From positions 75,011 through 139,010 of the forward strand of contig JAAYVD010000022.1 of the NCBI GenBank assembly GCA_012517355.1: a DNA stretch of 64,000 bases, read 5' to 3'. The stretch is from Candidatus Rifleibacteriota bacterium. Its GTDB lineage: Bacteria > Muiribacteriota > Ozemobacteria > Ozemobacterales > Ozemobacteraceae. A program made the position numbers and the translations under genes. The notes beneath the pieces are model-generated. The model was not told the DNA's origin, searched no databases, and saw nothing but the letters and a program-made list of their open reading frames with translations. How positions within the stretch are numbered: position 1 is the first letter of the stretch; each line of letters begins with the position of its first letter. Positions 22,493-38,852 of this stretch are shown one piece after another.

Positions 22493-24640
22493 TCAGGGCT
22501 GGAGGCTGAGGCGCGGCGTCGCTTCCCCGCCCCGGGTGGCCTGGGTGGCGGCGGAACCGTGCTGCCGGACGATGTGCGGCGTGATGAAGATGATCAGCTC
22601 GGTGCGTGATTCCTTGGAGGTCTTTTTGCGGAAGAGCTGGCCGATCCCGGGCAGATCGCCAAGGAACGGCACCTTGGAAATGGTGTCGTTCTTGTCGGTC
22701 TTGATCATGCCGCCGATCACGATGGTGTGGTTGTTCTTGATGATGACCTGGGTCTGGGCGCTGCGGTTGCTGAGGTTGGGGGTGGAGTTGCCACCCAGCG
22801 TGGTGAAGCCGAGCACGCTGCTGATGGTCGGGCTGATGTCCAGGAACACCTCGTCGTTGCCGGTCACCGACGGGGTCACCAGCAGGGTGATGTTGGCGTT
22901 GGCCTGGGCCACCGTCGTGGTGACGTTGCCCGTCTGGGCATTGGTCTGCGAGGACGAGACGTAGGGAATGGCCTGCCCGACCGTGATGTTGGCCTGCCGG
23001 TTGTTCAGGGTGGTGATGACCGGGTTGCTGAGCACCTTGGCGAAGGAATGGGTCTTGAGCATGGCCAGCAGGGCCCGGAACTGGTTGACGTTGAGACTGC
23101 CCCACCGGAAGACCCCCGTGCCGCCGGCATCGGCGGTTTCCGGGGCGATCGACATGTCGAAACTCTGCTCGTTGGTGCCGGGAATGGGGATCTGCTTCTG
23201 CCAGTTGATGCCCAGCCGCTCTTCCTCGTTCAGGTCGATCTCGTAGATGTGGGCGTCGATGGTCACCTGGATGGGCGCCACGTCGAGCTTGGCCACCAGT
23301 TCCCGGATCCGGTCGAGGTTGGACTGGTAGTCGGTGATGATCATCATGTCCGATCGCCCGGACCCCCCGCCGCCCGCCGCTGCCATGGAAGCCTGGCTCG
23401 ACGAATAGGCCTGGATCTGCGCCGCCGGGGCGATCATCTGGATGGCTTGCAGCAGGTTCGCGGCATCGACGTAGTCGAGGTAGAACACCTCGGTCACCTG
23501 CCGCACCGCCACCTCCACGGACTGTTCCTTGACATCGATCTGGGGCAGCAGTTTGGCGATACGGTCCAGCACCTGCTGGGTGTCGGTCACGAGCAGCGAG
23601 TTGGTGCGATCGTCCACCGACGAGGTGCCGCGATTGGGGGTGAGCAGGCGGTCGACGGTCGCCTTGATCGTGGCCGCCTTGGTGTTCTGGATGTTGAACA
23701 TGTGGGGGATCGTTGGGGCATTGGCCACCGGGAAGATGCTCAGGATGGAGCCCGACCAGGAGAATGCCAGGTCGTAGCTTCGCAGCAGGGTGTTGAACGC
23801 CTCCTCGACGGTGACGTCGCTGAACAGGATGGTCACCGTCCCACCGATCTGGGCATTGAGCATGAGATTGATGTTGACCAGGGTGGCCAGCGAGCGCAAG
23901 GCATCCTTCAGATCGGTGTCCCGGAAGTCCAGCTGCCGGATCTGGATGTTCGCTCCTGCGGGCAATCTGAGCGTGGTCCCCTGGCCGTCCGGTTCGCCCG
24001 TGCCGATGGTGGGACCTGACGGGGGGGTGAGCGGTTGCGGCTGGGCCCCGGTGATGGGGGAGGGAGCCGTGGCCGGGGCCAGCTGGTAGAGAGCATTCCG
24101 GTTCGCCCTTTCCCCGGCGGGGAAGGGGAGGCCAAGGGGAACGATGCCTTCCCGCGATCCGGGTGCTGATTCCCCCTGCCAGTCGGGTTGTGGGCACAGC
24201 CGGGCCGAGTCAGGCATCCCGGGGATGGGGAGCCCCTCCCCGACTTGAACGGGGAGGGCGGCTGCCCGAACTTCGGCGAGGGGATCGTGGGCCGGCGCGC
24301 GTGAAGGAAGAGTTCCCGGGGCGACCATGCGGATGCGGGTGCCGTTGCCCAGGTCGACCCAGTCCAGTCCCCGCGAAAAGCTGTGGCCGGTTCTGGCGCC
24401 AACCCCGCTGGTCGTCGACATGGAAGGTCCCACCTGGCTGGACGTGGAGGGAACCTTGAGAGAACCGTTCGGGGCCCGGGGAAGGGGCTGCCAGGGGGAG
24501 GCCGACCCGCGTGGCGACCGCGCCTGCACGACCGGGACGGGGGCTGTTCCGAGCAACAGCCCCACCAGGATCGCGCAGAACAGGGCTTTCCGGTCTTTCA
24601 GGATGGCCACGGCCTTCTCCGATGATGAGTCCCTCTTCAC
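22493..24640 (-). CDS. pilQ: Type IV pilus / T2SS secretin
   Basis: Signal peptide. N0/N1-like domains. Secretin C-domain with VPFLGDLPGIGQLFRKKTSKESRTELIIFITPHIV. Confidence 0.9.
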   Translation of the reverse strand: MKRDSSSEKAVAILKDRKALFCAILVGLLLGTAPVPVVQARSPRGSASPWQPLPRAPNGSLKVPSTSSQVGPSMSTTSGVGARTGHSFSRGLDWVDLGNGTRIRMVAPGTLPSRAPAHDPLAEVRAAALPVQVGEGLPIPGMPDSARLCPQPDWQGESAPGSREGIVPLGLPFPAGERANRNALYQLAPATAPSPITGAQPQPLTPPSGPTIGTGEPDGQGTTLRLPAGANIQIRQLDFRDTDLKDALRSLATLVNINLMLNAQIGGTVTILFSDVTVEEAFNTLLRSYDLAFSWSGSILSIFPVANAPTIPHMFNIQNTKAATIKATVDRLLTPNRGTSSVDDRTNSLLVTDTQQVLDRIAKLLPQIDVKEQSVEVAVRQVTEVFYLDYVDAANLLQAIQMIAPAAQIQAYSSSQASMAAAGGGGSGRSDMMIITDYQSNLDRIRELVAKLDVAPIQVTIDAHIYEIDLNEEERLGINWQKQIPIPGTNEQSFDMSIAPETADAGGTGVFRWGSLNVNQFRALLAMLKTHSFAKVLSNPVITTLNNRQANITVGQAIPYVSSSQTNAQTGNVTTTVAQANANITLLVTPSVTGNDEVFLDISPTISSVLGFTTLGGNSTPNLSNRSAQTQVIIKNNHTIVIGGMIKTDKNDTISKVPFLGDLPGIGQLFRKKTSKESRTELIIFITPHIVRQHGSAATQATRGGEATPRLSLQP

Positions 24641-25223: not shown

Positions 25224-25925
25224 TCAGGGACCCTTGCCGAAGGTGTCGTCGTAGGTATACGTGCCGTCCGAGGCCACGTTGACCACGACCCCCCTCTTGG
25301 GGATCAACACCGTTCCCGAGGCGTCCTCCATGATGATCAGGTGGCGCTCGATCTTTTTGATCTCGAGGTCCTGGAAGGTATCGCCGGCCTTGTACAGGCG
25401 GCTGTCGAGAATGGCCATCAGATTGGTGGGGGTCTCGATGGTTCCCATGAAGGGGGCTTGGATGATCCGGGTGGTCTTGACGACCTTTTTCTCCTCCTCG
25501 GTTCCACTCTGCTGAACGGTTCCTGCCACCCTCTGCATTTCGAGGAACGGAGACGGTTCGAAGGGCATCCGCGGAAGGTCGGTGAAGGCCTGGATGACGG
25601 GATCGACGTCCGAAGCAACGTGGGACGGTGCGCTGGTCACGGCTTCGGCGTGGTCTTCCGGGTGGGCGGACTGCGAGGCCGCCGCATCGATCGGTTGTTC
25701 TTCCCCCGGTCCAGCGCCGGGGGCATCCTCCGAGCCCTCGGCCGTTGCCGCTCCCGGTGCCGAGGCGACGGGCGTGGTCTGGCTGGCGATCTCCAGGTCA
25801 TCCAGGCTCACCGCCACCGCCGCCTTTTTGGGTTTCGGCTTGATTTTCGGGCGGTTCTTGAACCAGTTGACCCCCATCGCCACCGACAGGACGATCAGGC
25901 TGAGGAAGAACAAGCGCTTCCCCAT
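25224..25925 (-). CDS. pilP: PilP-like inner-membrane pilus alignment protein
   Basis: N-terminal signal anchor, an acidic disordered linker and a C-terminal beta domain (AILDSRLYKAGDTFQDLEIKKIERHLIIME). It sits between pilO and the secretin. Confidence 0.55.
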   Translation of the reverse strand: MGKRLFFLSLIVLSVAMGVNWFKNRPKIKPKPKKAAVAVSLDDLEIASQTTPVASAPGAATAEGSEDAPGAGPGEEQPIDAAASQSAHPEDHAEAVTSAPSHVASDVDPVIQAFTDLPRMPFEPSPFLEMQRVAGTVQQSGTEEEKKVVKTTRIIQAPFMGTIETPTNLMAILDSRLYKAGDTFQDLEIKKIERHLIIMEDASGTVLIPKRGVVVNVASDGTYTYDDTFGKGP

Positions 25926-25927
25926 TT

Positions 25928-26557
25928 TTACCCCCCCTCTTCTGGTGGAGGCGGTGGCGCTACTGGACCGTTCAGGAACTCTTCAGGAAGGACGTAGACC
26001 GTGGGCAGCAGGTCGAACTTGAAGGTTCCGCTCGCATCCGCCGAAAGGGGGGGAAGATCGAGGAAGATCAGTTTCTCTTGTTTTTCCAAAAGGCGTAGAA
26101 AAATCCCGAGTTGGCTGAACGTTCCCTGGAAACTGATCTTGACCGGGTATTCCTCATACCGGACGGTTTCGAAGGTCCGCTCCTGCTTGGGTTGTGGGCT
26201 GATGCTCTTGATCTCCATCTTGGCAAGTTTGCCGACCTGCCGGAGGTTTTGGAGAAACTGGGAGGCCTCGGACTGCTTGTAACAGATCTTGACCGCGTTC
26301 TCGCGGGCCTTCCTGAACTCGTTGACCTCGAGCTGGATCTGCTCCTTGTTGGCCACCGCCTCCTCGAGTACCTGGATCTGGCTCTCGATACCCTTGTTCT
26401 TTTTCAGTTCCTTGGTCAGGAGCACGACCTGGGGGGAATACATGAACTTCCACCCAATGAACAGGATGGCTCCCAGAACCAGAAATGGCTGGGCCGCCAC
26501 CTTAGGGTCGGCCTTGGCTTTCTGCAGCCACTCGGTAAGGGAAAAACCCTCTGCCAT
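25928..26557 (-). CDS. pilO: PilO-like pilus assembly protein
   Basis: One N-terminal TM helix (FLVLGAILFIGWKF), a coiled coil and a C-terminal alpha/beta domain. Operon position after pilM/N. Confidence 0.7.
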   Translation of the reverse strand: MAEGFSLTEWLQKAKADPKVAAQPFLVLGAILFIGWKFMYSPQVVLLTKELKKNKGIESQIQVLEEAVANKEQIQLEVNEFRKARENAVKICYKQSEASQFLQNLRQVGKLAKMEIKSISPQPKQERTFETVRYEEYPVKISFQGTFSQLGIFLRLLEKQEKLIFLDLPPLSADASGTFKFDLLPTVYVLPEEFLNGPVAPPPPPEEGG

Positions 26558-26567
26558 GGTGGTTCTC

Positions 26568-28445
26568 CTAGCCCTCTGGAGGAGGCTCGCCGGCTGGGGG
26601 TTCCCCGCCCCCGCCTTCCCCTTCGGCCGGAGGAGGGGGAGGCTCGGGAATCACGATCTTGCCGGCCAGGGAGAACTTGATGAAAAAACGCTCTTCATCG
26701 ATGGGAACCTCTTCCGTCGATTCGAGGGCGGATCCCTTGAAAAAGGTCGAGTTGTTCAAGGCCTTGAGATACTCGAAAACCCGGTCGGAGGTGTCGGTAT
26801 GGCCCGCCAGCCTGAACACCCGCGGATCGGACCGTACCTGCAAATGGGCGTTGGTGAGAAAGATCTGGCGGGGGGTCGAACTGGCGAGATCGAGCAGGAT
26901 CTCTGACAGCGGCACCTTGCTTGCCATCAGGGCTTCAGTCAGGCCAGCCTCTCTCCCCAAGAGGTCTTTTTCCGCGAGCAGCTGGGTAACCTCGGCCTGG
27001 GATTCCGTAAGGTCATTGAGGCGGGCTTCCAGTTTCTTGGTGTCGTTCTTGGCCTTGGTGACATCCTGGCGGATCTTCACCAAGGGGAAAGACCCCACGA
27101 GCAGGACGAAGACGACGAGCAGGCCGGCCAGGATCCGGAGCTTGCCCTCGTCGAGCTGCAGGCTGATGCCCAGCTTCTGGGCGAACCCTGCCCCGAATTT
27201 CGAACTCACGCCCGAGAAATCGATCGCCTGCGCTCTCCGGTTGGGATACATGATGTCGATGAAGTTGATCACCTTGGCGTCCCGCAGCCCGTCGTAGAGG
27301 GCAACTCCCACGGCCGGAGCCAGGGCGGGGGTTTCCATCGGCAGCCGGTCGGGGGGAAAATTGGTGCTTGTCGGCGACAACGTCTTGAACGGGTCGGCCA
27401 GCTCGGCCGGCACCTCGAGGCTTTCCTGGATGAACTCCTTGAAATTCTTCATGGCCGCCGTCCCGCCCGACAGGATGATGCGGTCGATGGCGGTCTCTCC
27501 GAATTGGGAGATGTAGAAACTGACCGACAACTGGATGTGCTGGAAGATCTTTTCAACGGTGGCGAAGATCTGCTGCCCGGCCCACTTCTCGGCCCCCTTC
27601 ATCGCCTGTACTTCGTCGGGAGGAAGGACGCCGATCTTGTGCTTCAGTTCGACCACCTCGTCGACCGTCTTGAACTCGATCTTTTGCCCGTCCACTTCCC
27701 CCCCCGCGAAGATGGCCTCGGTGATGGTCTCACCCCCCATGTTGATATCGCGGTAGAAGTTCAGAACCCCGCCCTTGTAGATCATGATCGAGGTGGTCTT
27801 GTGGCCACAATGGATCAGGGCCACCTTGCCCTTTTCCCCGGCCGACTTGATCCCGGCGGGGAGGGCCAATTCGAGGGCCTGGGGGAGGGTCAGGACCCCC
27901 TCGTTCGACAAACCCCCGCCCTTCAGGTTGTCGGTCATGATTTTGACGATGTCCTGCTGGAGGGCGGCCACCATGACCTGTTTGAGGGCCTTTTCCTCCT
28001 TGACGATTTCCCCGATTTCCTGCCAGCCGAAGACGGCTTTCTCCATCGAGAAGGGCATCTGCTTGGCGGCCTCGGCATTCACGCTGGCGGCGAAGGCCTC
28101 TTTCTCGGGGGTGGGGGGAAGCTCGAAATAGCGAATGGTCACCGGCCGCCCGCTGGCCAGGGTGATTCCCCGTTTCGTCTGGATCTGGTTGTCATACAAA
28201 AGCTCGGTCAGGTGCTTGGTCAGGAACTTGATGAGTTTCTGGATGGCGTCATTTTCGACGTCTTCGCGGCTCATCTTCTCACGCTCTTCCGCGGTCAGCT
28301 GATGGACGAACGGCGGTATGCGCAGGTGGGCAAGGGCTTTCAAGACGGGTTTCCCGTCGTCACCGGCGATGACGTGGACAAACTTCAGGGAAAAACTCCC
28401 TATGTCCACCGCCACGAAAGGTTCGAATTTCGCTGGATCAGCCAT
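26568..28445 (-). CDS. pilMN: PilM-PilN fusion: an actin-like ATPase-fold PilM domain fused to TM + PilN-like coiled-coil/periplasmic domains
   Basis: N-terminus VAVDIGSFSLKFVHV is the PilM/FtsA-like motif. An internal TM helix (LAGLLVVFVLLVGSFPLV) is followed by a coiled coil. The C-terminal tail is Pro/Glu/Gly-rich. Confidence 0.8.
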   Translation of the reverse strand: MADPAKFEPFVAVDIGSFSLKFVHVIAGDDGKPVLKALAHLRIPPFVHQLTAEEREKMSREDVENDAIQKLIKFLTKHLTELLYDNQIQTKRGITLASGRPVTIRYFELPPTPEKEAFAASVNAEAAKQMPFSMEKAVFGWQEIGEIVKEEKALKQVMVAALQQDIVKIMTDNLKGGGLSNEGVLTLPQALELALPAGIKSAGEKGKVALIHCGHKTTSIMIYKGGVLNFYRDINMGGETITEAIFAGGEVDGQKIEFKTVDEVVELKHKIGVLPPDEVQAMKGAEKWAGQQIFATVEKIFQHIQLSVSFYISQFGETAIDRIILSGGTAAMKNFKEFIQESLEVPAELADPFKTLSPTSTNFPPDRLPMETPALAPAVGVALYDGLRDAKVINFIDIMYPNRRAQAIDFSGVSSKFGAGFAQKLGISLQLDEGKLRILAGLLVVFVLLVGSFPLVKIRQDVTKAKNDTKKLEARLNDLTESQAEVTQLLAEKDLLGREAGLTEALMASKVPLSEILLDLASSTPRQIFLTNAHLQVRSDPRVFRLAGHTDTSDRVFEYLKALNNSTFFKGSALESTEEVPIDEERFFIKFSLAGKIVIPEPPPPPAEGEGGGGEPPAGEPPPEG

Positions 28446-28608: not shown

Positions 28609-28647
28609 CCAAAGAAAAACCGGCGCCCCTGGGAGCAGGGACGCCGG
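28609..28647 (-). terminator. Rho-independent terminator downstream of the pilin gene
   Basis: On the minus strand the GC-rich hairpin CCGGCGUCCCUG-CUCC-CAGGGGCGCCGG is followed by UUUUUCUUU. Confidence 0.65.
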
Positions 28648-28662
28648 TATCGAGGCTCGCAG

Positions 28663-29211
28663 TTAGAATTTGACCCGGCTGACGGACACCAGGATGTCGT
28701 CGCCATCATAATTAGGGCCAGCGACGGTGGTAACCGCATCCATCGCGCCATCGGGGCCGGCAGAATGGAGGTAGATGCCTTTGTTCCAGTGATAGTACTT
28801 GATCTTGGCGTCCCAGGCATCCATCATGAATTCTTCGGGGTTGCTGTCCATGTAGGGGCCCTTCCACCGCTTGGAATAGGCGTTGATCCCCATGTTGGTG
28901 AATGTTCCGGTAACCGTATTGTTGACCAGGACATTTTTGTCGTAGGTGGCATCGAGAGCAACGGTATCCGCCGCGTTGATGGTGTTGGCCGATGAGGTGC
29001 TAGTGGTGTGGGGGAAGCGGCCGAGGTCGTTGTTGTAGTTCACCAGGGCGGTCTTCAGGTTGGTCATCGCTGCCTTGGTGGCGGCCGATTTGCCCTGGTC
29101 GGTGATGCTGCCGATCATCGGGCCGGCGACCGAGGCCAGAACCGCGATGACGATGATGACGACCATGATCTCCATCAGGGTGAAGCCTGCCCGCCTCGAA
29201 AGCCTGTTCAT
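28663..29211 (-). CDS. Type IV pilin / GspG-like major pseudopilin (prepilin with class III signal)
   Basis: RRAGFTLMEIMVVIIVIAVLA is the prepilin cleavage/methylation motif. Downstream KAAMTNLKTALVNYNNDLGRFP resembles GspG/PilA. It has its own promoter and terminator. Confidence 0.85.
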   Translation of the reverse strand: MNRLSRRAGFTLMEIMVVIIVIAVLASVAGPMIGSITDQGKSAATKAAMTNLKTALVNYNNDLGRFPHTTSTSSANTINAADTVALDATYDKNVLVNNTVTGTFTNMGINAYSKRWKGPYMDSNPEEFMMDAWDAKIKYYHWNKGIYLHSAGPDGAMDAVTTVAGPNYDGDDILVSVSRVKF

Positions 29212-29250: not shown

Positions 29251-29279
29251 AATATAGGAAATTCCATCGGCATCGTCAA
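29251..29279 (-). promoter_or_regulatory. Near-consensus sigma70 promoter for the pilin gene
   Basis: On the minus strand TTGACG - 17 nt - TATATT, about 35 nt upstream of the ATG. A GGAGG SD follows. Confidence 0.5.
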
Positions 29280-29332: not shown

Positions 29333-31507
29333 TCATTGCGGCAAGAAAACGCATTTTCCCATTTCCACTTCCTCGGGGGTGACCTTGAAGGTCACGGCAG
29401 CCGATGCTGCCTGCTCCAGGAATCTGAACTCGTAGTGGTCTTCCGTATGGACCCTTCCCCCGTGGTCGCCGGTCGGGTAGGCCACCCGGAAGCGGATTTC
29501 GCCAGCGGGGCCGGTTTTCCCCGTCACCTGATACGGCAGGTGCATGGCACCGAAAGTGATCCAGAGCCTGGCCGTGTAGGCGACCTCCGGGGGGCCCTGG
29601 CCGAGGATTTCCGCTCCCTCCACCACTTCGAAGATCTTGGTGAGCGCTCTGGATTTTTTATTGGAGGTGAGGAACCGGCATCGGAACCTGGACACCCCTT
29701 CCCAGGCGATGTTCTCCCTCCCCTGGAGGCCGAAGGAATCGAACAATTGGGCGATGGGAAGGGTTGGGGATGCGTTCTCCACCGGTCGTGGGGCCCTTCC
29801 CTCTTCCCGCGCCAGGACCGCCTCCATGACTTTCAGACTTTCCAAGACATCGGGAGTCAGAAAAAGAAACCGGATGTTGGCCTTCCGGCATTGGGTGTAG
29901 AGGTCATCTGGCTTCAGGGAAAGGAAGAGACGGGACATGGTGGCCACGCCTCTTTGGGTGTTTGCGGCAACGGTAGGACGCTGTCCGTAATAGGCAATGA
30001 AATTTCCCTCGTCCCAGAAATTCAGAACCCCATAGGCAGGCATTGAACCGTCAGCATAGCCGCCAGGGTCCGGCGTATGTTCCCGGAGCCATTGGATCCC
30101 CTCGAAAACATAGGGTACAAGAGGGTTTGGCTGGAGGAGGGTGCTGAAATTCAGGTGGAGCGAAAGAAGCACCGGGATGGCCAACAAAGCTGCCGTCCTT
30201 CCCGCCTTCCAGCCACTTGTCGGGGAACCCCCGATTGGCTTCAACACGTGGAATAGGTGAAATAGGACCAGCCCCAGGAGCAGGCCATTCGCCGGGCCCA
30301 TCCAGCGGAAAAACCTCGTCTGGACCAGCCCCAATCCCATGGTGATGAAAGCCCAATGGACGAGGATCCATATGTTCGGAAGCTTGGGGGACCGGTCGTT
30401 GGGAAAAACGGCCAAGAGGAGAAAGAAAGGATACAGGCCAAACCGCTCGAAAATTCTGAGAAGGTGGGAATCGATCATTCCCCACCCGGAAACATTGAGA
30501 ATGGAGCCCATTTCCTGAACCGTGGCGAGAATGGGATCCGTCCTGGCAAGGAACATCCCGCCTTCCTGGAGGGTCTTTGGGAAAACCAGGGCGATCAGGA
30601 CGCTTCCCGCCCCCAGCATGGCGAATCGGAGCGAGGTGGGGATCTTTTCCCCCAACCTGCTCTCCATCTGGAACATCAGGAAGAAAAATGCCCCACCCAG
30701 GATAACCAACGAGGCGTGGATCCATCCAAAGCCATCGAAGATCGATCCCGAAACCATGGGCGGGTACCGGAGGAAATACAAGGCGATCACCCCTCCGCCA
30801 ACCAGCATGCCGGAACCGGAAAACTCGAAAATCGCCTCACACTCGGGTTTTTTTGCCAACCACAGGACCAGCATCCAGGCTCCGAACAGGCCGAAGAAAA
30901 ACGGCGCTCCCTGCCAGGTTGCCAGGAAAGCCGCGCAGACCGCCCCTCCTAGAATCTTGAGTTCCGGGGCTCGGGACTGCACGTATCGGGTGCACAGGAA
31001 AATCCAACTCCAGAGCCACAAGTTCTCCAGCCAATGGTGATCGACCCCGAGGAAAGAATTGGTCAGGGCCTGGGGAAACCCGGGGAGACTACCGAGGGCA
31101 ACCAGGCAGCAGAAAGGAAAATTCCTGGTCAGTTTCCAAAGGGTGAGAACCATGAACAGGCTCAGGATTACACCGCCCAGTGGAGGGAAAATCCCGATGA
31201 TCAGTTCTGGCTGGGAAGTCAGAGAGGGCATGATGGCAAATGCCAGCTGGGTGAATTTGACGAGAAACCAGAGGTAAAGGGGGGGGAAATTGACGGTAAA
31301 TGTATCCGGGAAGGTCATGTACCGGTCGGTTTCGAGAGGGCGGCCTTGAAGAAGGGATTGCTCGAACCACCGGAGATACAGAACCGAATCCGGGTCACCC
31401 ATGGGGAACTTGCCTTCCCAGGGATGACACAATTCCACTTTATTGAAGGCCCAAACGAGTTGGACCAAGAAGAGAGCAGCCAGGATCCAGACTTGGCGGC
31501 GGGTCAT
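29333..31507 (-). CDS. Polytopic GT-C-fold membrane glycosyltransferase with features like the STT3/AglB/PglB (GT66) oligosaccharyltransferase family
   Basis: About 13 TM helices followed by a ~230-aa C-terminal soluble domain. Loop-1 acidic motif GDPDSVLYLRWFE. A TVQE motif (compare TIxE/SVSE of EL5). FWDEGNFIAYY just after the last TM, at the position of WWDYG. It sits immediately upstream of the pilin gene. Confidence 0.5.
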   Translation of the reverse strand: MTRRQVWILAALFLVQLVWAFNKVELCHPWEGKFPMGDPDSVLYLRWFEQSLLQGRPLETDRYMTFPDTFTVNFPPLYLWFLVKFTQLAFAIMPSLTSQPELIIGIFPPLGGVILSLFMVLTLWKLTRNFPFCCLVALGSLPGFPQALTNSFLGVDHHWLENLWLWSWIFLCTRYVQSRAPELKILGGAVCAAFLATWQGAPFFFGLFGAWMLVLWLAKKPECEAIFEFSGSGMLVGGGVIALYFLRYPPMVSGSIFDGFGWIHASLVILGGAFFFLMFQMESRLGEKIPTSLRFAMLGAGSVLIALVFPKTLQEGGMFLARTDPILATVQEMGSILNVSGWGMIDSHLLRIFERFGLYPFFLLLAVFPNDRSPKLPNIWILVHWAFITMGLGLVQTRFFRWMGPANGLLLGLVLFHLFHVLKPIGGSPTSGWKAGRTAALLAIPVLLSLHLNFSTLLQPNPLVPYVFEGIQWLREHTPDPGGYADGSMPAYGVLNFWDEGNFIAYYGQRPTVAANTQRGVATMSRLFLSLKPDDLYTQCRKANIRFLFLTPDVLESLKVMEAVLAREEGRAPRPVENASPTLPIAQLFDSFGLQGRENIAWEGVSRFRCRFLTSNKKSRALTKIFEVVEGAEILGQGPPEVAYTARLWITFGAMHLPYQVTGKTGPAGEIRFRVAYPTGDHGGRVHTEDHYEFRFLEQAASAAVTFKVTPEEVEMGKCVFLPQ

Positions 31508-31721
31508 TTCACGGGTGCCTCATCAACCAAGGGGAAATGCCAAGGGATGCATGTTGCAAACCGTTTGCCTTCCTACTACTGTGGAATGTGTGATAAATTC
31601 GCGATCCGCTCAGGTGGGTGAATCTTCAGGGTAACCGGATCTGCCGGGTTTGTCCAGATTTCTATGAGGCCCCCAGCCCGCCGTCCGGATCGATCCGCGA
31701 CCGAAGACAGGTGATGCCGGG

Positions 31722-34100
31722 ATGGCGGAGGGACGGCAGAATCCCCCGTTTGTCCGAGACCCGGGGATGGCTGCTCATCGAGTGGGATTCGGCAGGAGAA
31801 GAATGTCGGCGTTGATGGATGGACAACGGTCAGGGCAGGACGGGGGGGCAAGCCCGACGGTGGAGCAGGGTTCGGGGCCCGCCCTGGTTGGTTCACCGTT
31901 TCCAATAAAAGCGGAGGCTTCCCAGTCAGAAGCGGAATCTGGAAAGCCGTCGCCTTCAGCCGTCTGGTGGGTCCTTCCCTGGTGGCTGGCCGGCATTCTT
32001 GGAATCATCGGCTATCCGCTCCTTTCGGGAGCGGTCCAGCCGAAATGGGATTCCCTGCATCTCGGGTATCCCTCCATTGTCTTCATGACCGATGCCTATG
32101 CCGAAGGACGGTTCCCCCTCTGGGACCCGTACACATCTTGCGGTTATCCCTTCCATGCGGCTTTGGGTGGGATTCTCAGCCCGCTCTACATCCTCGCCGG
32201 AAAACTCTTCGCCAACGGCGGGACCGGGTATGCCATGATCTGGTTGTTCATCTGGTGGTGGGCGGGGGTGGGAATCTTGGTCTGGTGCCGTTCACGGGGG
32301 TATTCCCCCTGGGGCGGCCTCTTGGCGGCGATGACCTTCATGTTCTCGGGGATTTTTGTGGGGACTGCCCCGCAAATCTCCATCCTTTCCGTCGGCGCCT
32401 GGACTCCCTGGCTCATCTGGTGCATCGAGCAGGGAACCCTTCGCCATCACCTCGGATTCGGGCTCCTGGCTGGCCTTTGCGGAGGCCTCGGAGCTCATGG
32501 GGGGTATCCAACCCTCCATGCATTCTCCTTTCTCGTCGCCGCGGGGTGGGTCCTACTCGATAGCTGGTTCCGGCTCCGTTCCGAGGGCCTTCAGGGGCAG
32601 TTCCCCGCCTGGTTGAAGGGGGTCCTGACCAACTGCCTCCTTGCCGGCGTCATCACCCTCCTCGTGTGGGCCCCCGCCGTGACTGCGTTTCTGCAGGAAG
32701 GGGCGGGGTTCACCGACCGGGTCGATCCCCTGCCGGCGGAGGTGGCCAACCATTATGGCATTTTCCCTCCCTCGGCCATGCCTTCGGTCTTCTTCCCGTA
32801 TCTTTCCATCGCAGGTCTGAACGTCCTCCCCTGGGATGTCGCCCTGACCAACGGGTTCTGTGGAATTTTCACCCCCTTTCTCCTCCTGTTTTTCTTCCTG
32901 GAACGCCGAAAGCAGGGAAAGACCCCTTGGCCATGGATCCTGTTCGTGGGGTTCATGATCCTCATGTCCTTCGGCGGGAAAGGGGTCGTCCGGTTGTTCG
33001 TGAACGTCCTTTTCCCGCCCCTGAAATACATGCGACACAGCTCCTTTTTCCGGGTTTTCTGGATGCTCGGCCTTTCCCTCTGGCTCGGCGAGGCGGTCAC
33101 CACCCTCCTCGACTCCCGGTCGGCCACCAGGGAGGCCTCGCTCCGCCAGGCATGGTGCTGGTTCGCCGCCCTGGTCGGCCTGGCCGCTCTCGGCGTGACC
33201 TGGCTCCTGCCCCTGGAAACCGCATCCTTCCGGGTGTTGATCCGGATCTTCTGCCCCGGGGTATTGGGCTTGGTGGGTGCGGCACTGTTGGTGCGGTTCT
33301 TCTCCCAGCCGACAACGGGGAACGCCCGCTGGGGGTGGCTGGCCCTTCTGCTCCTCGTCCACCTCGACCTGGGTTTCCATTTCTGGAACAACCAGTTCAC
33401 CGTCTGGGAACCCGCCAACGACATCCCATGGGCCGAGAGCCGTCGCGTGCGGCAGACGACCATCCTTGGGGAGCCGGGGGGCCGGGGCCCTCCCTTCGCC
33501 TTCGGGTTCTTCAACGCCCAGCAGGTGCTCAAGGTTTTCGTGGCGCAAGGGTACATCACCATGAAGGACCAAGGGTTCGACGAGATCCTTTGCCGGAGCC
33601 CGTTTCTTTCGGTCCTGCGGTCGCCGGTCCGCTTCTGGCTTACCCCCGCCTGGCAGATCGGGGTTCCCCGCGAGGAGATTCTGCAACGGTTGAAGGACGT
33701 TTCCGCCTCGCATCCCGTCCCCGTGCTCCTCGAAGCATCGGAATCCCTGGCCCCCGGGTCGGGGGTGCCGGTGGTACCAGGAACCCTCGGCCAGGTGGCT
33801 TGCCGGAAGTTCTCTCCTGAGGAGATTGAACTTTCTGTGAACAACCCTGGTTCCGCCCCCCTCATGCTCGCCACCACCGAACGGTTCGCCGCGGGGTGGA
33901 AAGGATGGGTGGACGAGGTGCCGACCCAGGTTCTCAAGGTGAATGGGTGTTTCCGGGGAATGCTGGTGCCCCCGGGGAAGCACGAGGTGGTTTTCCGGTA
34001 TCTCCCGGCGGGGTGGCATGCCCTGGTGGCTCTCTCGCTTGCCACCTTCCTGCTCACGATCCTGTTGACGGTGTGGGCTTTCCGTTTCCGGAAGGCATGA
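31722..34100 (+). CDS. YfhO-like large membrane protein (GT-C-type periplasmic glycosyltransferase candidate). The true start is probably downstream of 31722.
   Basis: About 14 N-terminal TM helices, a ~190-aa extracytoplasmic domain and a final C-terminal TM helix (LATFLLTILLTVWAF), which is the YfhO topology. The N-terminal 60 aa of the ORF look like non-coding extension. Confidence 0.5.
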   Translation: MAEGRQNPPFVRDPGMAAHRVGFGRRRMSALMDGQRSGQDGGASPTVEQGSGPALVGSPFPIKAEASQSEAESGKPSPSAVWWVLPWWLAGILGIIGYPLLSGAVQPKWDSLHLGYPSIVFMTDAYAEGRFPLWDPYTSCGYPFHAALGGILSPLYILAGKLFANGGTGYAMIWLFIWWWAGVGILVWCRSRGYSPWGGLLAAMTFMFSGIFVGTAPQISILSVGAWTPWLIWCIEQGTLRHHLGFGLLAGLCGGLGAHGGYPTLHAFSFLVAAGWVLLDSWFRLRSEGLQGQFPAWLKGVLTNCLLAGVITLLVWAPAVTAFLQEGAGFTDRVDPLPAEVANHYGIFPPSAMPSVFFPYLSIAGLNVLPWDVALTNGFCGIFTPFLLLFFFLERRKQGKTPWPWILFVGFMILMSFGGKGVVRLFVNVLFPPLKYMRHSSFFRVFWMLGLSLWLGEAVTTLLDSRSATREASLRQAWCWFAALVGLAALGVTWLLPLETASFRVLIRIFCPGVLGLVGAALLVRFFSQPTTGNARWGWLALLLLVHLDLGFHFWNNQFTVWEPANDIPWAESRRVRQTTILGEPGGRGPPFAFGFFNAQQVLKVFVAQGYITMKDQGFDEILCRSPFLSVLRSPVRFWLTPAWQIGVPREEILQRLKDVSASHPVPVLLEASESLAPGSGVPVVPGTLGQVACRKFSPEEIELSVNNPGSAPLMLATTERFAAGWKGWVDEVPTQVLKVNGCFRGMLVPPGKHEVVFRYLPAGWHALVALSLATFLLTILLTVWAFRFRKA

Positions 34101-34142: not shown

Positions 34143-35597
34143 TCAGCCCGACCGCTTCCAGGCGAGGAGGGTGAGGGCGATGCGGGCCTTCTGCAGGAAG
34201 TCCCGCCAGCTCGAGAGGCGGCGGAAGCGCTTCCACAGGTAGGAGGGGCGGAAGTAGAAGCGCCAGTTCAGACCGCGGAGGATCCGGTCGAGGCGCGGTT
34301 TCTTCAAATGGGGGTAGGAAATGAAGGACTCCCGCATCGGGTCGATCGGCTCATACTCGGGCCTGATCATCCATCCCTTCGCCCGGGCGATCGCGTTGAA
34401 TTCCGTGAAGGGGAAGGGCGTGCAGATCGAGAACAACACGTAGTCCACGTCCAGTTTCAGGAGCTCCCGGAAGGTGTGATCGATCGTGGCCTCCGTCTCG
34501 AGGGGAGAGGAGGCCAGCAGGATGTTCAGTTCCGGTTCGATCCCGGCCGCCTTGACGTTGGCCACGGCGGGCCCGATCTGCTCGACGCGGTAGCCCTTGC
34601 CGATGTCGTCGATGATCGCCTGGGAAAAGGATTCCACGCCGATGTCGATGTAGCGGCAGCCCGCCCTGCCCATGGCGTGAAGGATTTCCGGGTCCTGCAG
34701 GCGGTCCACGCGGGCCAGACAGGACCATTCCAACCCGAGCGGTTGCATGCCCTCGGCGATGGCCAGAGCCCGCTCCTTTCCCCAGATGAACTGGTCGTCG
34801 AGGAACGAGATGGCCCGGAACCCTTCCCGGGCGAGGCTGGCGCACTCCGCCACGACATTGGCCGCGCTCCGCAGGCGGACGGGAGGCTTGCCGTGGGGCT
34901 CCGCCCAGCGCTTGAACTCGATTTCCCGGGCGAAACTCTGGGAATTGGGCACGCAGAACCGGCAGGCATACCCGCATCCGCGGGAGGCGACCATCGTGGT
35001 GCAGGGAGACCGGGACAACTTGGGGTTGCCGAAATCCAGGCCCCGAAGGAAAGACCGGTCGGGGAAGGGGAGGCTGTCGAGGTCCTCCAGCAGTGGTGGG
35101 GCGGCGGTGCCCACGGGACTCCCCCCGTCGAGGAAGGAGATGCCGGGAACGGAGGCGAGCGGGCGTTTCCCGAGAAAGGCTTCGAGCAGGGCGAGAACGC
35201 GGGTTTCGGGTTCCCCGCGGATGACGACCGAGGTGGAATCGAGGAACCGCTCGGGGGTGGCGGTGGGTTGGGTGGAGAAGAAGACGAACCGGGTGTGGGG
35301 ATGCCTTGCCTTCAGGGCATCGCGGGCCAGCAGGTCGGTGGCCGCCGAGAGAAAGACGGTGGAGAGGAACACGACGTCGTGGTCGAGAGAGTCGGCATCC
35401 CGCAGGAACTCGTTCTTCCCCTTGCCGGCGGCGGGGTAATCCCGATACTCGGTGGGGTATCCGGCCTGCCGGAGCATGGTGGCCGGGTACAGCAGGAAGA
35501 TGTTGGCCTGGGAATACAGCCCGTAGTTGCAGCCGAAGATCCGTTCGGCGGCGGGCTTGCCATCGAGGGCGGGGGGCACCAGGAACAGGCATCTCAT
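34143..35597 (-). CDS. B12-binding-domain radical SAM enzyme. The start ATG overlaps the upstream GT2 stop as ATGA.
   Basis: N-terminal B12-binding-like domain (MRCLFLVPP...). CxxxCxxC radical SAM cluster motif RGCGYACRFC. The 626-aa ORF extension upstream is in the GT2 gene's region and is spurious. Confidence 0.8.
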   Translation of the reverse strand: MRCLFLVPPALDGKPAAERIFGCNYGLYSQANIFLLYPATMLRQAGYPTEYRDYPAAGKGKNEFLRDADSLDHDVVFLSTVFLSAATDLLARDALKARHPHTRFVFFSTQPTATPERFLDSTSVVIRGEPETRVLALLEAFLGKRPLASVPGISFLDGGSPVGTAAPPLLEDLDSLPFPDRSFLRGLDFGNPKLSRSPCTTMVASRGCGYACRFCVPNSQSFAREIEFKRWAEPHGKPPVRLRSAANVVAECASLAREGFRAISFLDDQFIWGKERALAIAEGMQPLGLEWSCLARVDRLQDPEILHAMGRAGCRYIDIGVESFSQAIIDDIGKGYRVEQIGPAVANVKAAGIEPELNILLASSPLETEATIDHTFRELLKLDVDYVLFSICTPFPFTEFNAIARAKGWMIRPEYEPIDPMRESFISYPHLKKPRLDRILRGLNWRFYFRPSYLWKRFRRLSSWRDFLQKARIALTLLAWKRSG

Positions 35598-36421
35598 GCG
35601 GCGGTCCTTCCTTGCCAGCCGAATTCCGAGAGCAGATAGGCCCATCGGATGGCAGCGGCGGGCAGCGCTTGCAGGGCCATTTCCAGCCCGAACCGCAGGA
35701 GGTCGGCGGTCTCCCAACGGTATCCCAGGCGTCGGACCGCCTCGCGCTTGACCTTGAGGGTGGCCCCCAGCACCTCTTTCACCCTGGCCATGCGGGTGGC
35801 CTGGGGCGACAGGCGGTAGTCCAGGAGAACCTCGTCCAACGCGGCCAGGCGGCCCCAGCGGGCGATCTCCAGCCACAGGAAGTAGTCCTCGGCGTACCGG
35901 AACGCTTCCCGGTAGCGAAGCCGGTGACCGGGAACCAATGAGCGGCGGATCATGACCGTGGGATGGAGGAGCGGATTGGCCCACAGCGGGGATCCAGCCA
36001 CGCGGCAGGACCGGATCCTGCACAGGCTCCGGCCGTCGCGGTCGATGTAGCGGAGGGCGGTTCCGACCACCGCCACGTCGGGGTTGGCCTCGAGGAAATC
36101 CACCTGCCGGCGGAACCGCTGCGGGTGGGCGAGGTCGTCGGCGTCCATGCGGGCGAGAAAGCGCCCCTGGCAGGCGGCGAGGCCCCGATTGAGGGCCCGG
36201 ACGATACCCGTGTTCACCGTCAGGGAGATGACCCGCAGGCGGTCGTCACGGGCGGCGGCTTCCCGGAGGAGGGAGGCCGTGTCGTCCGTGGATCCGTCAT
36301 CGACCGCCACCAGTTCGAAGTCGCCGAAGCTCTGGGCGAAGACGCTGTCCAGGGCCGGCCGGAGGTGTTCCCCTCCGTTGTAAACCGGCATCAGGACGGA
36401 AATAATGGGCGGGATCGTCGT
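35594..36421 (-). CDS. Family 2 glycosyltransferase (GT-A fold). I assume a GTG start at 36421.
   Basis: ISVLMPVYNGGEHLRPALDSVFAQSF...ELVAVDDGSTDDT...RMDADD shows the DxD/GT2 signature. The Pro/Arg-rich N-terminal 37 aa of the longest ORF look spurious. Confidence 0.75.
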   Translation of the reverse strand, partial: TTIPPIISVLMPVYNGGEHLRPALDSVFAQSFGDFELVAVDDGSTDDTASLLREAAARDDRLRVISLTVNTGIVRALNRGLAACQGRFLARMDADDLAHPQRFRRQVDFLEANPDVAVVGTALRYIDRDGRSLCRIRSCRVAGSPLWANPLLHPTVMIRRSLVPGHRLRYREAFRYAEDYFLWLEIARWGRLAALDEVLLDYRLSPQATRMARVKEVLGATLKVKREAVRRLGYRWETADLLRFGLEMALQALPAAAIRWAYLLSEFGWQGRTAA

Positions 36422-36449
36422 CACCCTGGCCTTCCCTGGACGATTCCTC

Positions 36450-36842
36450 TCACCTGGATCGTCCCACGCCCTGGGTCTGGGCTTTGAGGATGGCCAGCTC
36501 CTGGACGAGGTTCTTGATCTGGGTGGTGACCGTGGCATCCCGCATCGAGGCTTGGAGGGCCAGCACCATCAGGAACAGTTGTCCGAAAAAGAAGATGGCC
36601 GAGGCCGGGGCGGCGATTCCCAGGAAATGGGTGAGCCGCCGCAGGATCGGGTAATTGGTTCCCAGCAGGAAGGTGAGCGACCCGACGCCCAGCCAGAGCC
36701 ACGAGTCGTCTTCCTTGACCTTCCGACGTCGGACGAGTTCCAGGGTGAGGAAGAACACGGCGGCGCTCAGGCTGACGATCAGGGTGCGCTGCCGCGGGGG
36801 CAGGTCGCTGGCTTCGGGGTCGTTGGTCATGGGCGTCTCCAA
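36450..36842 (-). CDS. Small 3-TM membrane protein of the kind found next to GtrB-like GT2 genes (DUF2304/GtrA-like candidate)
   Basis: 130 aa, three TM helices, a C-terminal amphipathic/coiled segment. Located between two GT2 genes. Confidence 0.5.
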   Translation of the reverse strand: METPMTNDPEASDLPPRQRTLIVSLSAAVFFLTLELVRRRKVKEDDSWLWLGVGSLTFLLGTNYPILRRLTHFLGIAAPASAIFFFGQLFLMVLALQASMRDATVTTQIKNLVQELAILKAQTQGVGRSR

Positions 36843-36894: not shown

Positions 36895-37635
36895 TCAGTC
36901 GGCCTTCCAGAAACTCAACCCTCCCATGTGGCGCAGGAAGATCATGAAGGAAGCCATCAGCATTTTGGCGCAGTAGCGGACGGGGTGGAAGAACCCCGAG
37001 TGCATGCTCTTGGTCCCCGGCGGGGGATGCATGATCACATCGACCTCCCGCATGCGGACTCCGGCATACCGCATCATGATGTAGACGTCGGCGTCGGGGA
37101 AGTCCAGGGGGAAGTGGTCCCGGGTCAGGAGGGCGAGGGCTTTGCGGTTGTAGGCCCGGAAGCCGGAAGTGGGGTCCTGGGGCGGAATACCGGAAAACCA
37201 GCCGATCATCCAGGAGAAGAACCGGCGACCGATCCGGCGGAGCAGGGGAGACTGGTAATCCGATCCGGGATGGTAGCGGTTGCCGATGACGCAATCGGCC
37301 TCTCCGGCCAGCAGCGGGTCGAGGATCCGGGGAATCATGGTGGGGTCGTGCTGTCCGTCGGCATCCATCTGGACGAGGAAGGAAAACCCTGCCTGGAGGG
37401 CATACTTGTACCCGGTCTGCAGCGCCCCGCCGTAGCCGAGGTGGATGGGGAGCTTGAGGCACAGGACTCCCAGGTCGCGGGCCACCCGGGCGGTATCGTC
37501 GGCCGACCCGTCATCGACCACCATGGGGAGCGTGTGGGGGGGAAGGTTCGCCAACAGGGTGCGGAGGGTGCGGGGCAGATTTCCGGCCTCGTTGAAGGCG
37601 GGGATGATGACCAGGATGTGGGCCGGCGCTGTCAT
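36895..37635 (-). CDS. GtrB/DPM1-like family 2 glycosyltransferase (polyprenyl-phosphate sugar synthase type)
   Basis: ILVIIPAFNEAGNL...VVDDGSADDT...VQMDADGQHDP...C-terminal TM helix. The start ATG at 37635 was verified. The N-terminal part of the 647-aa ORF is the antisense shadow of pilC. Confidence 0.8.
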   Translation of the reverse strand: MTAPAHILVIIPAFNEAGNLPRTLRTLLANLPPHTLPMVVDDGSADDTARVARDLGVLCLKLPIHLGYGGALQTGYKYALQAGFSFLVQMDADGQHDPTMIPRILDPLLAGEADCVIGNRYHPGSDYQSPLLRRIGRRFFSWMIGWFSGIPPQDPTSGFRAYNRKALALLTRDHFPLDFPDADVYIMMRYAGVRMREVDVIMHPPPGTKSMHSGFFHPVRYCAKMLMASFMIFLRHMGGLSFWKAD

Positions 37636-37646
37636 CCGTGGCAGGT

Positions 37647-38852
37647 CTACTTCATCTGCTGGACGATCGAGAAGAGCGGCATGAAGACCGACAGGGCGAT
37701 GCCGCCGATCATGACGCCCATGACGACGGTCAGGATGGGAGTCAGGGCGGCGGTCAGGCCGTCGAGGGCTTCGGCCACCTCCTGGTCGAAGAAGTCGGCC
37801 GCCTTTTCCAGCATCTTGTCGAGGTTGCCGGAGTTCTCGCCGACCTCGATCATCTTCTGGACCATGGTGGGGAAGAGGTAGCTGCCCTTGATGGTGGCGG
37901 CGAGGCGTTTGCCACCCTGGACCCCGACGGCCATATCTGCGATCAGGTTTTCGAACAGCTTGTTGCCCATGACCGAACCCGTGATCTTGAGAGCGTTGAG
38001 AATGGGCACGCCGGCGGCCAGCAGGGAGCAGAAGGTGCGGCAGAAGCGGCTGACGGCGACCTTCTTGGTCAGGTTCCCAACGATGGGGGCGCGGACGGCG
38101 AACTGGTTCATCAGGGATTCGCCGATCTCGGTCTGGAGGAACACGTAGATCCCGACCACGGTGGCCGCCGTTCCTCCCAGCCACATGACATAGTTGTCCA
38201 GGAGGCTGTCCGACAAGAAGATCAGGAGCTTGGTGATGGCCGGGAGTTCGGCCTTCATCTTCTTGAACATCTTGGTGAAGTTCGGGAAGATCTTGACCAG
38301 CAGGAACACCACGCAACCTACGGCCAGCACCAGCTGCACGACCGGCATGGTCAGGGCGCCCTTGACCTTGCCGCGCATCTTCGAGTCGGCTTCGGCGAAG
38401 GCGGCCAGCCGGGCCAGGACCTTGTCGAGCATGCCGCCCGCCTCGCCGGCCTCGACCATGTTGCAGAAGATGTTGTTGAAGACCTTGGGATACTTGCGCA
38501 ACCCGGCGGAGAACGGCTGGCCGCTCTGCAGGTCCTTGCCGATCTTTTCCAGGACGCTCTTGAAGAAGGGGTTTTCCGTCTGGTCGCACATGATGCCGAC
38601 CGCCTCGACCAGGGGGATGGCGGAGCCCACCAGGGTCGACAGCTGGACGGTGAAGACCATCAGCTCCTTCGAGGAGACGCTTCCCCCGAACATGCCGCCG
38701 AACCCGCCCGCTTCCTTGGCGGCGGTGGCCTTGACGAGATAATACCCCTTGTCGGACAGGATGGAGGCGAGCTTCTGGATGCTCTCGGCCTCGATCGAAG
38801 TCTTGAGGATCTCGCCTTTGGAGTTCTTGACTTCGCAATCGTATTTCGGCAT
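37647..38852 (-). CDS. pilC: Type IV pilus / T2SS inner-membrane platform protein (GspF/PilC family)
   Basis: 401 aa. Two repeated cytoplasmic domains with three TM helices. The ...GNLDKMLEKAADFFDQEV... pattern is typical of the family. Confidence 0.9.
   Translation of the reverse strand: MPKYDCEVKNSKGEILKTSIEAESIQKLASILSDKGYYLVKATAAKEAGGFGGMFGGSVSSKELMVFTVQLSTLVGSAIPLVEAVGIMCDQTENPFFKSVLEKIGKDLQSGQPFSAGLRKYPKVFNNIFCNMVEAGEAGGMLDKVLARLAAFAEADSKMRGKVKGALTMPVVQLVLAVGCVVFLLVKIFPNFTKMFKKMKAELPAITKLLIFLSDSLLDNYVMWLGGTAATVVGIYVFLQTEIGESLMNQFAVRAPIVGNLTKKVAVSRFCRTFCSLLAAGVPILNALKITGSVMGNKLFENLIADMAVGVQGGKRLAATIKGSYLFPTMVQKMIEVGENSGNLDKMLEKAADFFDQEVAEALDGLTAALTPILTVVMGVMIGGIALSVFMPLFSIVQQMK

Follow-up and report, generated by a model that had tools for sequence, protein, structure and literature searches.

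Whether a bacterial type IV pilin can serve as the substrate of an archaeal-type N-glycosylation enzyme is the question raised by a 64,000-nucleotide stretch of DNA (hereafter the window) from the Candidatus Rifleibacteriota assembly GCA_012517355.1 (contig JAAYVD010000022.1, positions 75,011 to 139,010). Next to the gene of a GspG-like type IV (pseudo)pilin, its minus strand contains an open reading frame (ORF) for a 724-residue membrane protein, which an earlier note had described as a divergent STT3/PglB-like oligosaccharyltransferase (OST). With a probability of roughly 0.55, the gene codes for an AglB-type, catalytically competent OST whose main acceptor is the adjacent pilin. The evidence directly supports the family membership of the protein, its fold, the equivalence of its motifs, the conserved linkage to the pilin gene and the hyper-divergence of the OST alleles.

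The ORF, including its ATG start, is as delimited in the earlier note, and its product is identical to an NCBI entry without functional annotation ('MAG: hypothetical protein GX442_02510 [Candidatus Riflebacteria bacterium]'; MAG, metagenome-assembled genome). A Pfam scan matched PF22627 (AglB_core-like) to residues 489-525, i.e. the region around an FWDEG motif, with 31.4 bits (gathering score 27); PF18079 (AglB_L1) gave a weak match at the C-terminus, under the cut-off, and STT3 (PF02516) gave none. The NCBIfam model TIGR04154 (archaeo_STT3) matched residues 58-531 with E=2.6e-33, its score of 115 being far under the cut-off of 450. In a phmmer search of the PDB, residues 469-553 aligned with the C-terminal domains of Archaeoglobus fulgidus AglB-S1 and AglB-S2 (3vgp, E=1.8e-7). 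A profile of 36 full-length family members matched A. fulgidus AglB-L (AfAglB-L, 3WAJ) with E=3.1e-36 across the transmembrane core and the C-terminal peripheral domain, the second stretch of 3WAJ that it aligned being residues 704-866 (C-terminal domains), and mammalian STT3A at about 1e-17; PglB (3RCE/5OGL) was not found in the PDB at E<1 even with this profile. The AlphaFold2 (AF2) model built on the same 36-sequence alignment was confident (predicted local distance difference test, pLDDT, 87.7; predicted template modelling score, pTM, 0.88), with helices to residue 458, followed by an alpha/beta unit and a beta-sandwich, in agreement with the approximately 13 transmembrane helices and the soluble C-terminal domain that had been predicted. 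Foldseek against the PDB returned AfAglB-L (7E9S) as top match (template modelling score, TM-score, 0.78; E=3e-24), at a sequence identity of about 15%, further matches being human and yeast STT3 (about 0.6), the DPY19 C-mannosyltransferase (0.60) and PglB (0.49). The proposed structure prediction thus yielded a GT-C fold, with AglB-L as best match. No Wzy_C domain was detected in the Pfam and NCBIfam scans, and the fold is of the OST type. The gene product is almost certainly a true GT66 (STT3-family) homologue. Of the description 'STT3/PglB-like', the STT3-family GT-C fold stands, and the relation to PglB has to be replaced by one to AglB, because PglB was missed by the profile and is only a distant fold match, its TM-score being well below that of AfAglB-L.

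Three motifs had been proposed to correspond to catalytic or acceptor positions of known OSTs, namely an acidic one in external loop 1 (EL1), TVQE in a later loop, and FWDEG. All are present where claimed, and the Pfam, phmmer and profile matches, together with conservation in the 36 members, indicate that they are not chance matches; aligned by profile with AfAglB-L, they fall on such positions. Among the 36 aligned members, D156, E332 and R398 never vary, and conservation reaches 90% or more at P39, D40, R46, W498 and G501. AfAglB D47, D161, H163 and E360 have roles in the catalytic site, where they bind the metal ion and position or activate the sequon, and the first DXD motif of the enzyme is Gly-Asn-Asp47, with the Asp as third residue (PMC8342417). 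Within D38-P-D40 of the query, D40 is likely the better candidate for the equivalent of D47. The gapped HMMER pairing of D38 with D47 was rejected because D40 is better conserved, because the ungapped alignment keeps the spacing of six residues to the arginine (D40..R46; D47..R53 in AfAglB), and because DXD has its catalytic Asp in third place. The second metal-binding motif D156-H157-H158, of the DXD/DXH type of EL2, which had been overlooked in the earlier note, was aligned with AfAglB D161-H-H163 by the family profile, position 158 being H or D in 38 of 40 sequences. TVQE was aligned with AfAglB TIAE (E360), the family pattern being [TS][IV]xE. R398 was aligned with the arginine of AfAglB QNR and is kept in 97 of 98 aligned distant homologues; it is the likely ligand of the lipid phosphate. 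R401 is specific to the query's own family.

FWDEGN stood opposite WWDYGN of A. fulgidus AglB-S1 and AglB-S2, column for column, in the phmmer alignment, and FWDxGN opposite WWDYGH of AfAglB-L in the profile alignment. The motif lies past the last transmembrane helix, as had been stated, at a distance of about 40 residues rather than immediately after it. W498, D499 and G501 are kept in the query, so that the second W and the D are indeed retained; the Tyr-to-Glu exchange to which the earlier note had drawn attention falls into a neutral column, which varies freely within the family (E, Q, K, R, L, Y, H, V, T, C, M), and deserves little weight. At this position the family has the signature [FY]WDxGN: F or Y stands in place of the first Trp in all members, and a few members lack the Asp (FWSHG, FWGEG, YWHIG, YRNES, and FWSNG in locus L006). 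In known OSTs, Trp-Trp-Asp and the Lys or Ile of the DK/MI motif form the pocket for the Ser/Thr at +2, the DK/MI motif being located on a kinked helix (PMC3703281). A conserved residue of this second signature was not found after strand 545-550 in the family alignment; E556-x-x-K559 of the query would fit a DK-type motif, the column being occupied by R, K, Y, S or W elsewhere. G-x-x-x-M-A-x-[IV]-F (residues 520-528) was considered as an MI motif and rejected, since the DK/MI helix follows the next beta-strand (PMC3703281), corresponding to residues 552-568, which are not conserved in the family. The fold and four of the six STT3/AglB signature motifs were found, the remaining two, WWDYG and DK/MI, giving a mixed picture. 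Family-wide, the departures that appear meaningful are the loss of the first Trp, some losses of the Asp, and the lack of a conserved DK/MI residue. Judged from its residues, the catalytic centre appears intact and the Ser/Thr pocket degenerate, and the enzyme is probably active.

An exhaustive HMMER search over 1.84 billion cluster representatives gave 331 matches, of which 40 were under 1e-30. These are mostly 720-800 residues in length, all 23-35% identical, and can be regarded as a distinct OST family. A word-indexed homologue search returned nothing beyond the query itself, and 6 matches only when the family profile was used. All members with an assignable organism are from Riflebacteria, most being without a taxonomy label, and named sequences immediately beyond the family comprise AglBs of Methanocella, Methanocalculus, Methanomethylovorans and a Halobacteriota archaeon, and a sequence from one Verrucomicrobiota MAG. 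A full-text literature search on Riflebacteria or Ozemobacter in combination with OST, pili or glycosylation found nothing relevant.

The association with the pilin gene was followed in a scan of one genome per GTDB species with a 10-sequence family alignment as query, which returned 15 loci, nine labelled Riflebacteria or Ozemobacteraceae (including Ca. Ozemobacter sibiricus) and six labelled 'uncultured bacterium' and showing the same gene order. An OST homologue abuts a pilin gene in all 15 loci. The pilin is an orthologue within a secretin-x-x-PilO-PilMN-pilin array in 13 of them, as far as the contig extends; the exceptions are L004, with a short, divergent pilin, and L008, where the contig ends within the pilin gene. 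The two genes are divergently oriented in most loci and co-directional in the window and in L012, and in L010 a GT2 glycosyltransferase gene lies between them. Tandem OST paralogues occur beside the pilin gene in L008 (363-2753 and 2792-5080) and L009 (7851-10304 and 10343-12631); one paralogue carries DYH, YWDEGN and RFYR, and the other DYT, FWDRGN and RYYA, R401 and the H/D of the second DXD motif being absent from it. The OST gene of L012 is split by a frameshift into two ORFs (L012:822-1346 and L012:1259-3148) and may be a pseudogene or reflect an assembly error. One MAG contig contains two modules of pilin plus OST, one in the pilus cluster (L013) and one elsewhere (L004); the latter is located outside any PilMNO cluster and comprises genes for a methyltransferase, two B12-binding radical SAM enzymes, GT2 enzymes, two further polytopic membrane proteins, and a GT2a-DUF2304 pair as described below for the window. 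Among more divergent members, the OST gene of P0031 (L017) is divergent from a pilin gene in the vicinity of a TMEM260-like GT-C gene and glycan genes, without PilMNO, and that of the outlier P0043 (L019) lies between a YfhO-like GT-C gene and a pair of prepilin genes. In L017, the TMEM260_N-like (protein O-mannosyltransferase-type GT-C) plus TPR protein encoded by L017:4695-7010 (minus strand) adjoins the pilin gene opposite the OST, so that this pilin gene is flanked by two different GT-C enzymes. Locus L020, counted among the exceptions to the linkage, ends early on its contig. No pilin gene adjoins P0155 or P0153, two AglB-like genes that are more distantly related, indicating that the pilin link is specific to this OST family. 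Within the family, the linkage has persisted through inversion, duplication, relocation and replacement.

Of the products of the locus, the OSTs are by far the least conserved. Across the loci, identity to the proteins of the window is 54-90% for PilMN and 44-73% for the pilin (29% for the short pilin of L004), as compared to 25-33% for the OST. In pairs of loci with PilMN 90-91% identical (L012/window, L001/L003), the OSTs share 28-34% and the pilins 71-77% identity; L012, the closest relative by flanking genes (PilMN 90%), has an OST only about 28-35% identical to that of the window. The genes downstream of the OST (radical SAM, GT2, extra GT-C) likewise vary between loci. GC content at third codon positions is 0.71 in the OST gene and 0.77 in the neighbouring YfhO-like gene, as compared to 0.81-0.92 in the pilus core genes, and total GC of the window drops to about 0.57-0.58 over approximately 28-32 kb; the low values over 29333-34100 would fit horizontal exchange of this segment. 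The overall pattern of divergence is that of a cassette exchanged between lineages. Pilins remain similar where OST alleles change, which makes it more plausible that the OST follows the donor glycan and not the acceptor.

The acceptor question was addressed with 16 pilins encoded adjacent to OST genes. Their N-terminal helix is nearly the same throughout, their core is GspG-like (W-K-G-P-Y-M-D ... F-M-x-D-x-W ... D-D-I), and they differ in a hypervariable insert, which is often rich in Ser, Thr or Asn and includes Ser/Thr-rich stretches such as HTTSTSSANT and PTQTTTSDL. The pilin of the window, product of its sole prepilin-type gene, contains a single N-x-S/T (N97-N-T) as well as a hypervariable segment rich in Ser/Thr. 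A conserved pilin sequence N-[VI]-L-[VT] was considered as a non-canonical site and set aside, since it corresponds to the L-x-A-L-V helix of GspG and is probably structural.

Several points weigh against the adjacent pilin as main acceptor. N-x-S/T is not enriched in the 16 pilins (21 observed, 28.3 +/- 4.8 in shuffles), four of the pilins have no sequon, no sequon position is conserved, and there is no correlation between OSTs lacking the WWD Asp and pilins lacking sequons. Neither a flippase nor an initiating phosphoglycosyltransferase is encoded in the putative glycan island beside the OST gene, and the pilin gene has its own promoter-like site, located in the 121-bp gap to the OST gene, as well as its own terminator, and does not require co-transcription with the OST. 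One paralogue that has lost WWD (P0041, L018) is located beside the gene of a giant Big_5 protein, no pilin being annotated there. Finally, adjacency within one phylum is partly a matter of phylogenetic inertia or of a recombination hot spot, and the loci are not fully independent observations. Taken together, the pilin sequences do not support canonical sequon glycosylation, and are compatible with it for most loci; the missing sequon enrichment and the lack of a conserved sequon would fit a relaxed or atypical acceptor rule. The giant Big_5 proteins may constitute a second class of acceptors. The window itself encodes a 2532-residue surface-type protein (8212-15810, minus strand) with 18 Big_5 repeats, Big_10, a CopC-like domain and a Kelch propeller; the protein of L018:1-5213, from another Riflebacteria MAG and akin to it, is encoded just upstream of the WWD-less OST paralogue (DHNWGH).

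Absence of sequon enrichment and the Big_5 neighbour of the L018 paralogue could also be explained by a general N-OST acting on many exported proteins at ordinary N-x-S/T sequons, in which case the gene would lie beside the pilin gene because of co-regulation or a hot spot for surface glycans. In favour of this, the catalytic set is complete, W498-D499 of WWD are retained, and PglB and AglB act as generalists (PMC5131992). This explanation nevertheless seems unlikely, given that the adjacency outlasts inversion, duplication, allele replacement and relocation outside the pilus cluster, that a housekeeping OST is not expected to differ by about 70% between genomes with PilMN 90% identical, and that the Ser/Thr pocket is degenerate.

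Preferring a pilin-directed enzyme leaves the type of linkage to be considered. An AglB scaffold which modifies Ser/Thr residues of the hypervariable pilin segment, in the manner of TfpO/PilO, PglL or TfpW, would be consistent with the consistent loss of the first Trp of WWDYG, the loss of the Asp in several members and the lack of a conserved DK/MI residue, with sequon-free pilins that still neighbour an intact OST, and with the Ser/Thr-rich stretches of the variable region. O-linkage is possible and without precedent in the STT3 family, no member of which is known to make O-links; the short L004 pilin, moreover, lacks a Ser/Thr-rich variable segment and still has an adjacent OST. In known OSTs, the Asn amide is twisted and activated by the TIXE Glu and the DXD Asp (PMC8342417), and both are retained here (E332 invariant, D40 at least 90% conserved), which renders an O-linking or other non-Asn transferase quite improbable. 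Because these amide-activating residues are kept, the Asn amide would most probably still be the nucleophile and the linkage of the N-type; because the Ser/Thr pocket is degenerate ([FY]WDxGN, no conserved DK/MI residue), the data suggest that recognition of a Ser/Thr at +2 is weakened or altered. It is very improbable that the protein glycosylates no protein at all, being instead a GT-C enzyme with a lipid or polysaccharide acceptor, or a membrane part of the pilus machinery without catalytic function. In favour of this reading are the non-protein acceptors of the GT-C relatives YfhO, Emb/Aft and ArnT, weak fold matches to AftA and Emb, and the loss of the WWD Asp in some members. Against it, fold and sequence are specifically OST-like (TM-score 0.78 for AglB, about 0.3 for Aft/Emb), and the strong conservation of the TIXE motif, which binds the peptide, and of the catalytic acidic residues speaks against a non-catalytic role.

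The genes surrounding the OST gene (Table 1) are arranged on the minus strand in the order TPR, PilB, PilC, GT2a, DUF2304, GT2b, B12-binding radical SAM enzyme, [YfhO-like, plus strand], OST, pilin, PilMN, PilO, two genes, secretin.

Table 1. Coordinates of the OST gene, its motifs and the genes and sites of the surrounding pilus locus in the window
Feature	Position	Strand	Remarks
AglB-type (STT3/GT66) OST homologue	29333..31507	-	724 aa; ATG start
OST domain architecture			About 13 transmembrane helices, periplasmic alpha/beta core unit, C-terminal beta-sandwich (AglB_L1-like); AF2, profiles
C-terminal peripheral beta-sandwich (AglB_L1 / P1-like)	29351..29617	-	aa 631-719; PF18079 E=1.1e-3, 3WAJ alignment, AF2
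EL1 motif GDPDSVLYLRWFE	31361..31399	-	aa 37-49; D40 likely catalytic metal-binding Asp; R46 conserved
Second DXD-type motif D156-H157-H158	31034..31042	-	Corresponds to AfAglB D161-H-H163
TIXE-type motif T329-V-Q-E332	30512..30523	-	aa 329-332; flexible EL5 loop, lower pLDDT in AF2
R398-F-F-R401	30305..30316	-	From alignment
Degenerate WWDYG region FWDEGNFIAYY	29987..30019	-	aa 497-507; phmmer, profile, family alignment
Secretin (PilQ/GspD)	22493..24640	-
Two genes without family match	24690-25163, 25224-25925	-	Between pilO and secretin
PilO	25928..26557	-
PilM-PilN fusion protein (PilMN)	26568..28445	-	625 aa
Intrinsic-terminator-like hairpin, strong	28619..28648	-	13 bp stem and T run, directly after pilin gene
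GspG-like type IV (pseudo)pilin	28663..29211	-	182 aa; prepilin motif G/FTLMEI; proposed acceptor
Sigma-70-like promoter match TTGACG-17-TATATT	29251..29279	-	Between OST stop and pilin start; consensus match only
Second GT-C membrane glycosyltransferase	31722..34100	+	Weak YfhO-family match; divergent from OST gene
B12-binding radical SAM enzyme (HpnJ/AprD4-like)	34143..36023	-	True start probably near 35590
GT2b, GT2 glycosyltransferase	35594..36538	-	Start probably slightly downstream of the listed one
DUF2304 small membrane protein	36450..36842	-	PF10066 E=6.8e-21; putative partner of polyprenyl-phosphate GT2
GT2a, polyprenyl-phosphate sugar synthase-like	36895..37638	-	247 aa
PilC/GspF platform protein	37647..38852	-	T2SSF E=9e-58
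PilB/GspE assembly ATPase	38885..40561	-	MshEN N-domain; NF053729 E=1.9e-15
TPR protein	40591-41340	-	Upstream of PilB

GT2a matched PpgS (2e-23), AglJ (3.5e-16), Dol-P-hexose transferase (Dol-P, dolichyl phosphate; 3.6e-11) and ArnC-type enzymes. Because of these matches to polyprenyl-phosphate synthases and the adjoining DUF2304 gene, the region between pilC and the pilin gene is predicted to be a glycan-donor island, with the OST at its pilin-proximal end. GT2a homologues recur beside the OST in L004, L008-L010, L012 and L014, in L004 together with DUF2304. A 647-codon 'GT2' ORF (36895-38838, minus strand) was dismissed as an artefact, its first approximately 400 codons being an alternative frame of pilC which precedes the real 247-residue GT2; used as tblastn query, it gave misleading 'GT2' matches beside PilB in other loci. 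The B12-binding radical SAM enzyme is a candidate for sugar tailoring. One to three such genes (HpnJ/AprD4-like) accompany the OST in most loci, including the flanks of L001, L004, L006, L007 and L017, an enrichment that is unusual for a protein-glycosylation island. The YfhO-like gene is absent from the other genome loci; in L019, a YfhO-like gene is likewise divergent from the OST. Among the pilus genes, the PilMN fusion has a Pro/Gly/Glu-rich C-terminal tail (PPPPPAEGEGGGGEPPAGEPPPEG) and is kept in all related loci; the two genes without family match are kept in every related locus as well, at the positions expected for PilP-like components. The MshEN-type c-di-GMP (cyclic di-GMP)-binding domain of PilB suggests control of the filament by this messenger.

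From the sequences, the structural model and synteny, we infer activity, donor, acceptor and linkage type of the OST as follows. On the cytoplasmic side of the membrane, GT2a and its DUF2304 partner would attach a sugar to polyprenyl phosphate, and GT2b and the B12-binding radical SAM enzyme would extend or tailor the lipid-linked sugar. After the glycan-lipid has been flipped to the periplasmic side, the OST, a GT-C enzyme in which D40, D156 and H158 would coordinate a divalent metal and E332 of the TIXE loop would contribute as well, would move the sugar or short glycan from polyprenyl phosphate onto the periplasmic pilin, either ahead of filament assembly or in its course. The YfhO-like GT-C enzyme might add a further sugar outside the membrane, from a polyprenyl-phosphate-linked monosaccharide. 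Swapping of OST alleles and glycan genes as cassettes between lineages would diversify the pilus surface. Halobacteriota and Methanomicrobia AglBs use monophosphate-linked donors, and the proposed polyprenyl-phosphate donor fits with these AglBs being the nearest relatives of the family. A bolder proposal, less probable than not, is that of a dedicated pilin-modifying, AglB-derived family whose acceptor rule has been freed of the N-x-S/T hydroxyl (Asn without Ser/Thr at +2, or O-linkage), and which is exchanged together with radical SAM, GT2 and GT-C genes as hyper-variable cassettes. If true, the family would provide the first example of an STT3-family enzyme dedicated to a substrate and independent of the sequon, and the system would be the first archaeal-type N-glycosylation module acting on a bacterial type IV filament.

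To our knowledge, bacterial N-glycosylation by an STT3-family enzyme is established experimentally only for PglB (Campylobacterota and some Desulfobacterota), and bacterial pilin glycosylation only as O-linked modification by unrelated Wzy_C-family enzymes or TfpW. The locus suggests a third route, in which an archaeal-type AglB is wired to a bacterial type IV pilin, as in archaea with their pilins and archaellins. It thus bears on the movement of OSTs between domains and on the drift of the acceptor pocket. The divergence of alleles at a fixed locus represents a natural library of OSTs, in which donor specificity probably, and acceptor specificity perhaps, has been varied, and which is of interest for glyco-engineering; with candidate acceptor, transferase and several glycan genes within about 10 kb, the locus is suited to heterologous co-expression.

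The closest known system is that of the euryarchaeal AglBs (AfAglB-L, PDB 3WAJ/5GMY/7E9S; the TIGR04154 AglBs, 'archaeosortase A system-associated', of Halobacteriota and Methanomicrobia), with which the OST shares the GT-C core of 13 transmembrane helices, the central core (CC) unit and the P1-like beta-sandwich, and, as compared to AfAglB-L, the residues D40 (D47), D156/H158 (D161/H163), E332 (E360), R398 and W-D-x-G-[NH] at the WWDYG position. In archaea, both type IV pilins and archaellins are N-glycosylated by AglB (PMC5131992). The OST differs from the euryarchaeal enzymes in its bacterial host, in [FY]WDxGN instead of WWDYG, in the lack of a conserved DK/MI residue, in the extra R401, in the coupling of its gene to a pilin gene, and in its hyper-divergence between close genomes. 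PglB of Campylobacter lari (3RCE/5OGL) resembles it as a single-subunit, bacterial periplasmic OST of the same superfamily fold and catalytic logic; however, PglB has canonical WWDYG and MI motifs and is a generalist not linked to pilins, and no pgl-type locus is present in the window. PglB also requires D/E at -2.

Pilin-adjacent glycosylation enzymes are represented by Pseudomonas TfpO (PilO), Neisseria PglL and Acinetobacter TfpO/PglS, which are Wzy_C-type O-OSTs, and by Pseudomonas TfpW, a GT-C arabinosyltransferase. There too, the gene of a membrane transferase that uses a lipid-linked donor adjoins the major pilin gene, within a variable, allele-specific accessory region of the pilus locus; these enzymes, however, belong to unrelated families and form O-links, whereas the OST keeps the catalytic residues of N-OSTs. 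With respect to donor synthesis, the island resembles the Agl pathway of Haloferax volcanii, in which the GT2 enzyme AglJ acts on Dol-P, AglB is the OST and the GT-C enzyme AglS adds the final sugar from Dol-P-Man, and the mycobacterial trio of PpgS, Rv3632 (DUF2304) and the GT-C protein Rv3779: an AglJ/PpgS-like GT2, a DUF2304 protein, presumably of the small-membrane-partner type of the mycobacterial PpgS/Rv3632 pair, an AglB-like OST and a second GT-C enzyme are all encoded, and the additional B12-binding radical SAM enzymes set the island apart. The enzyme class is known; new are the bacterial lineage, the hard-wired linkage to a pilin, the degenerate acceptor pocket and the cassette-like hyper-divergence.

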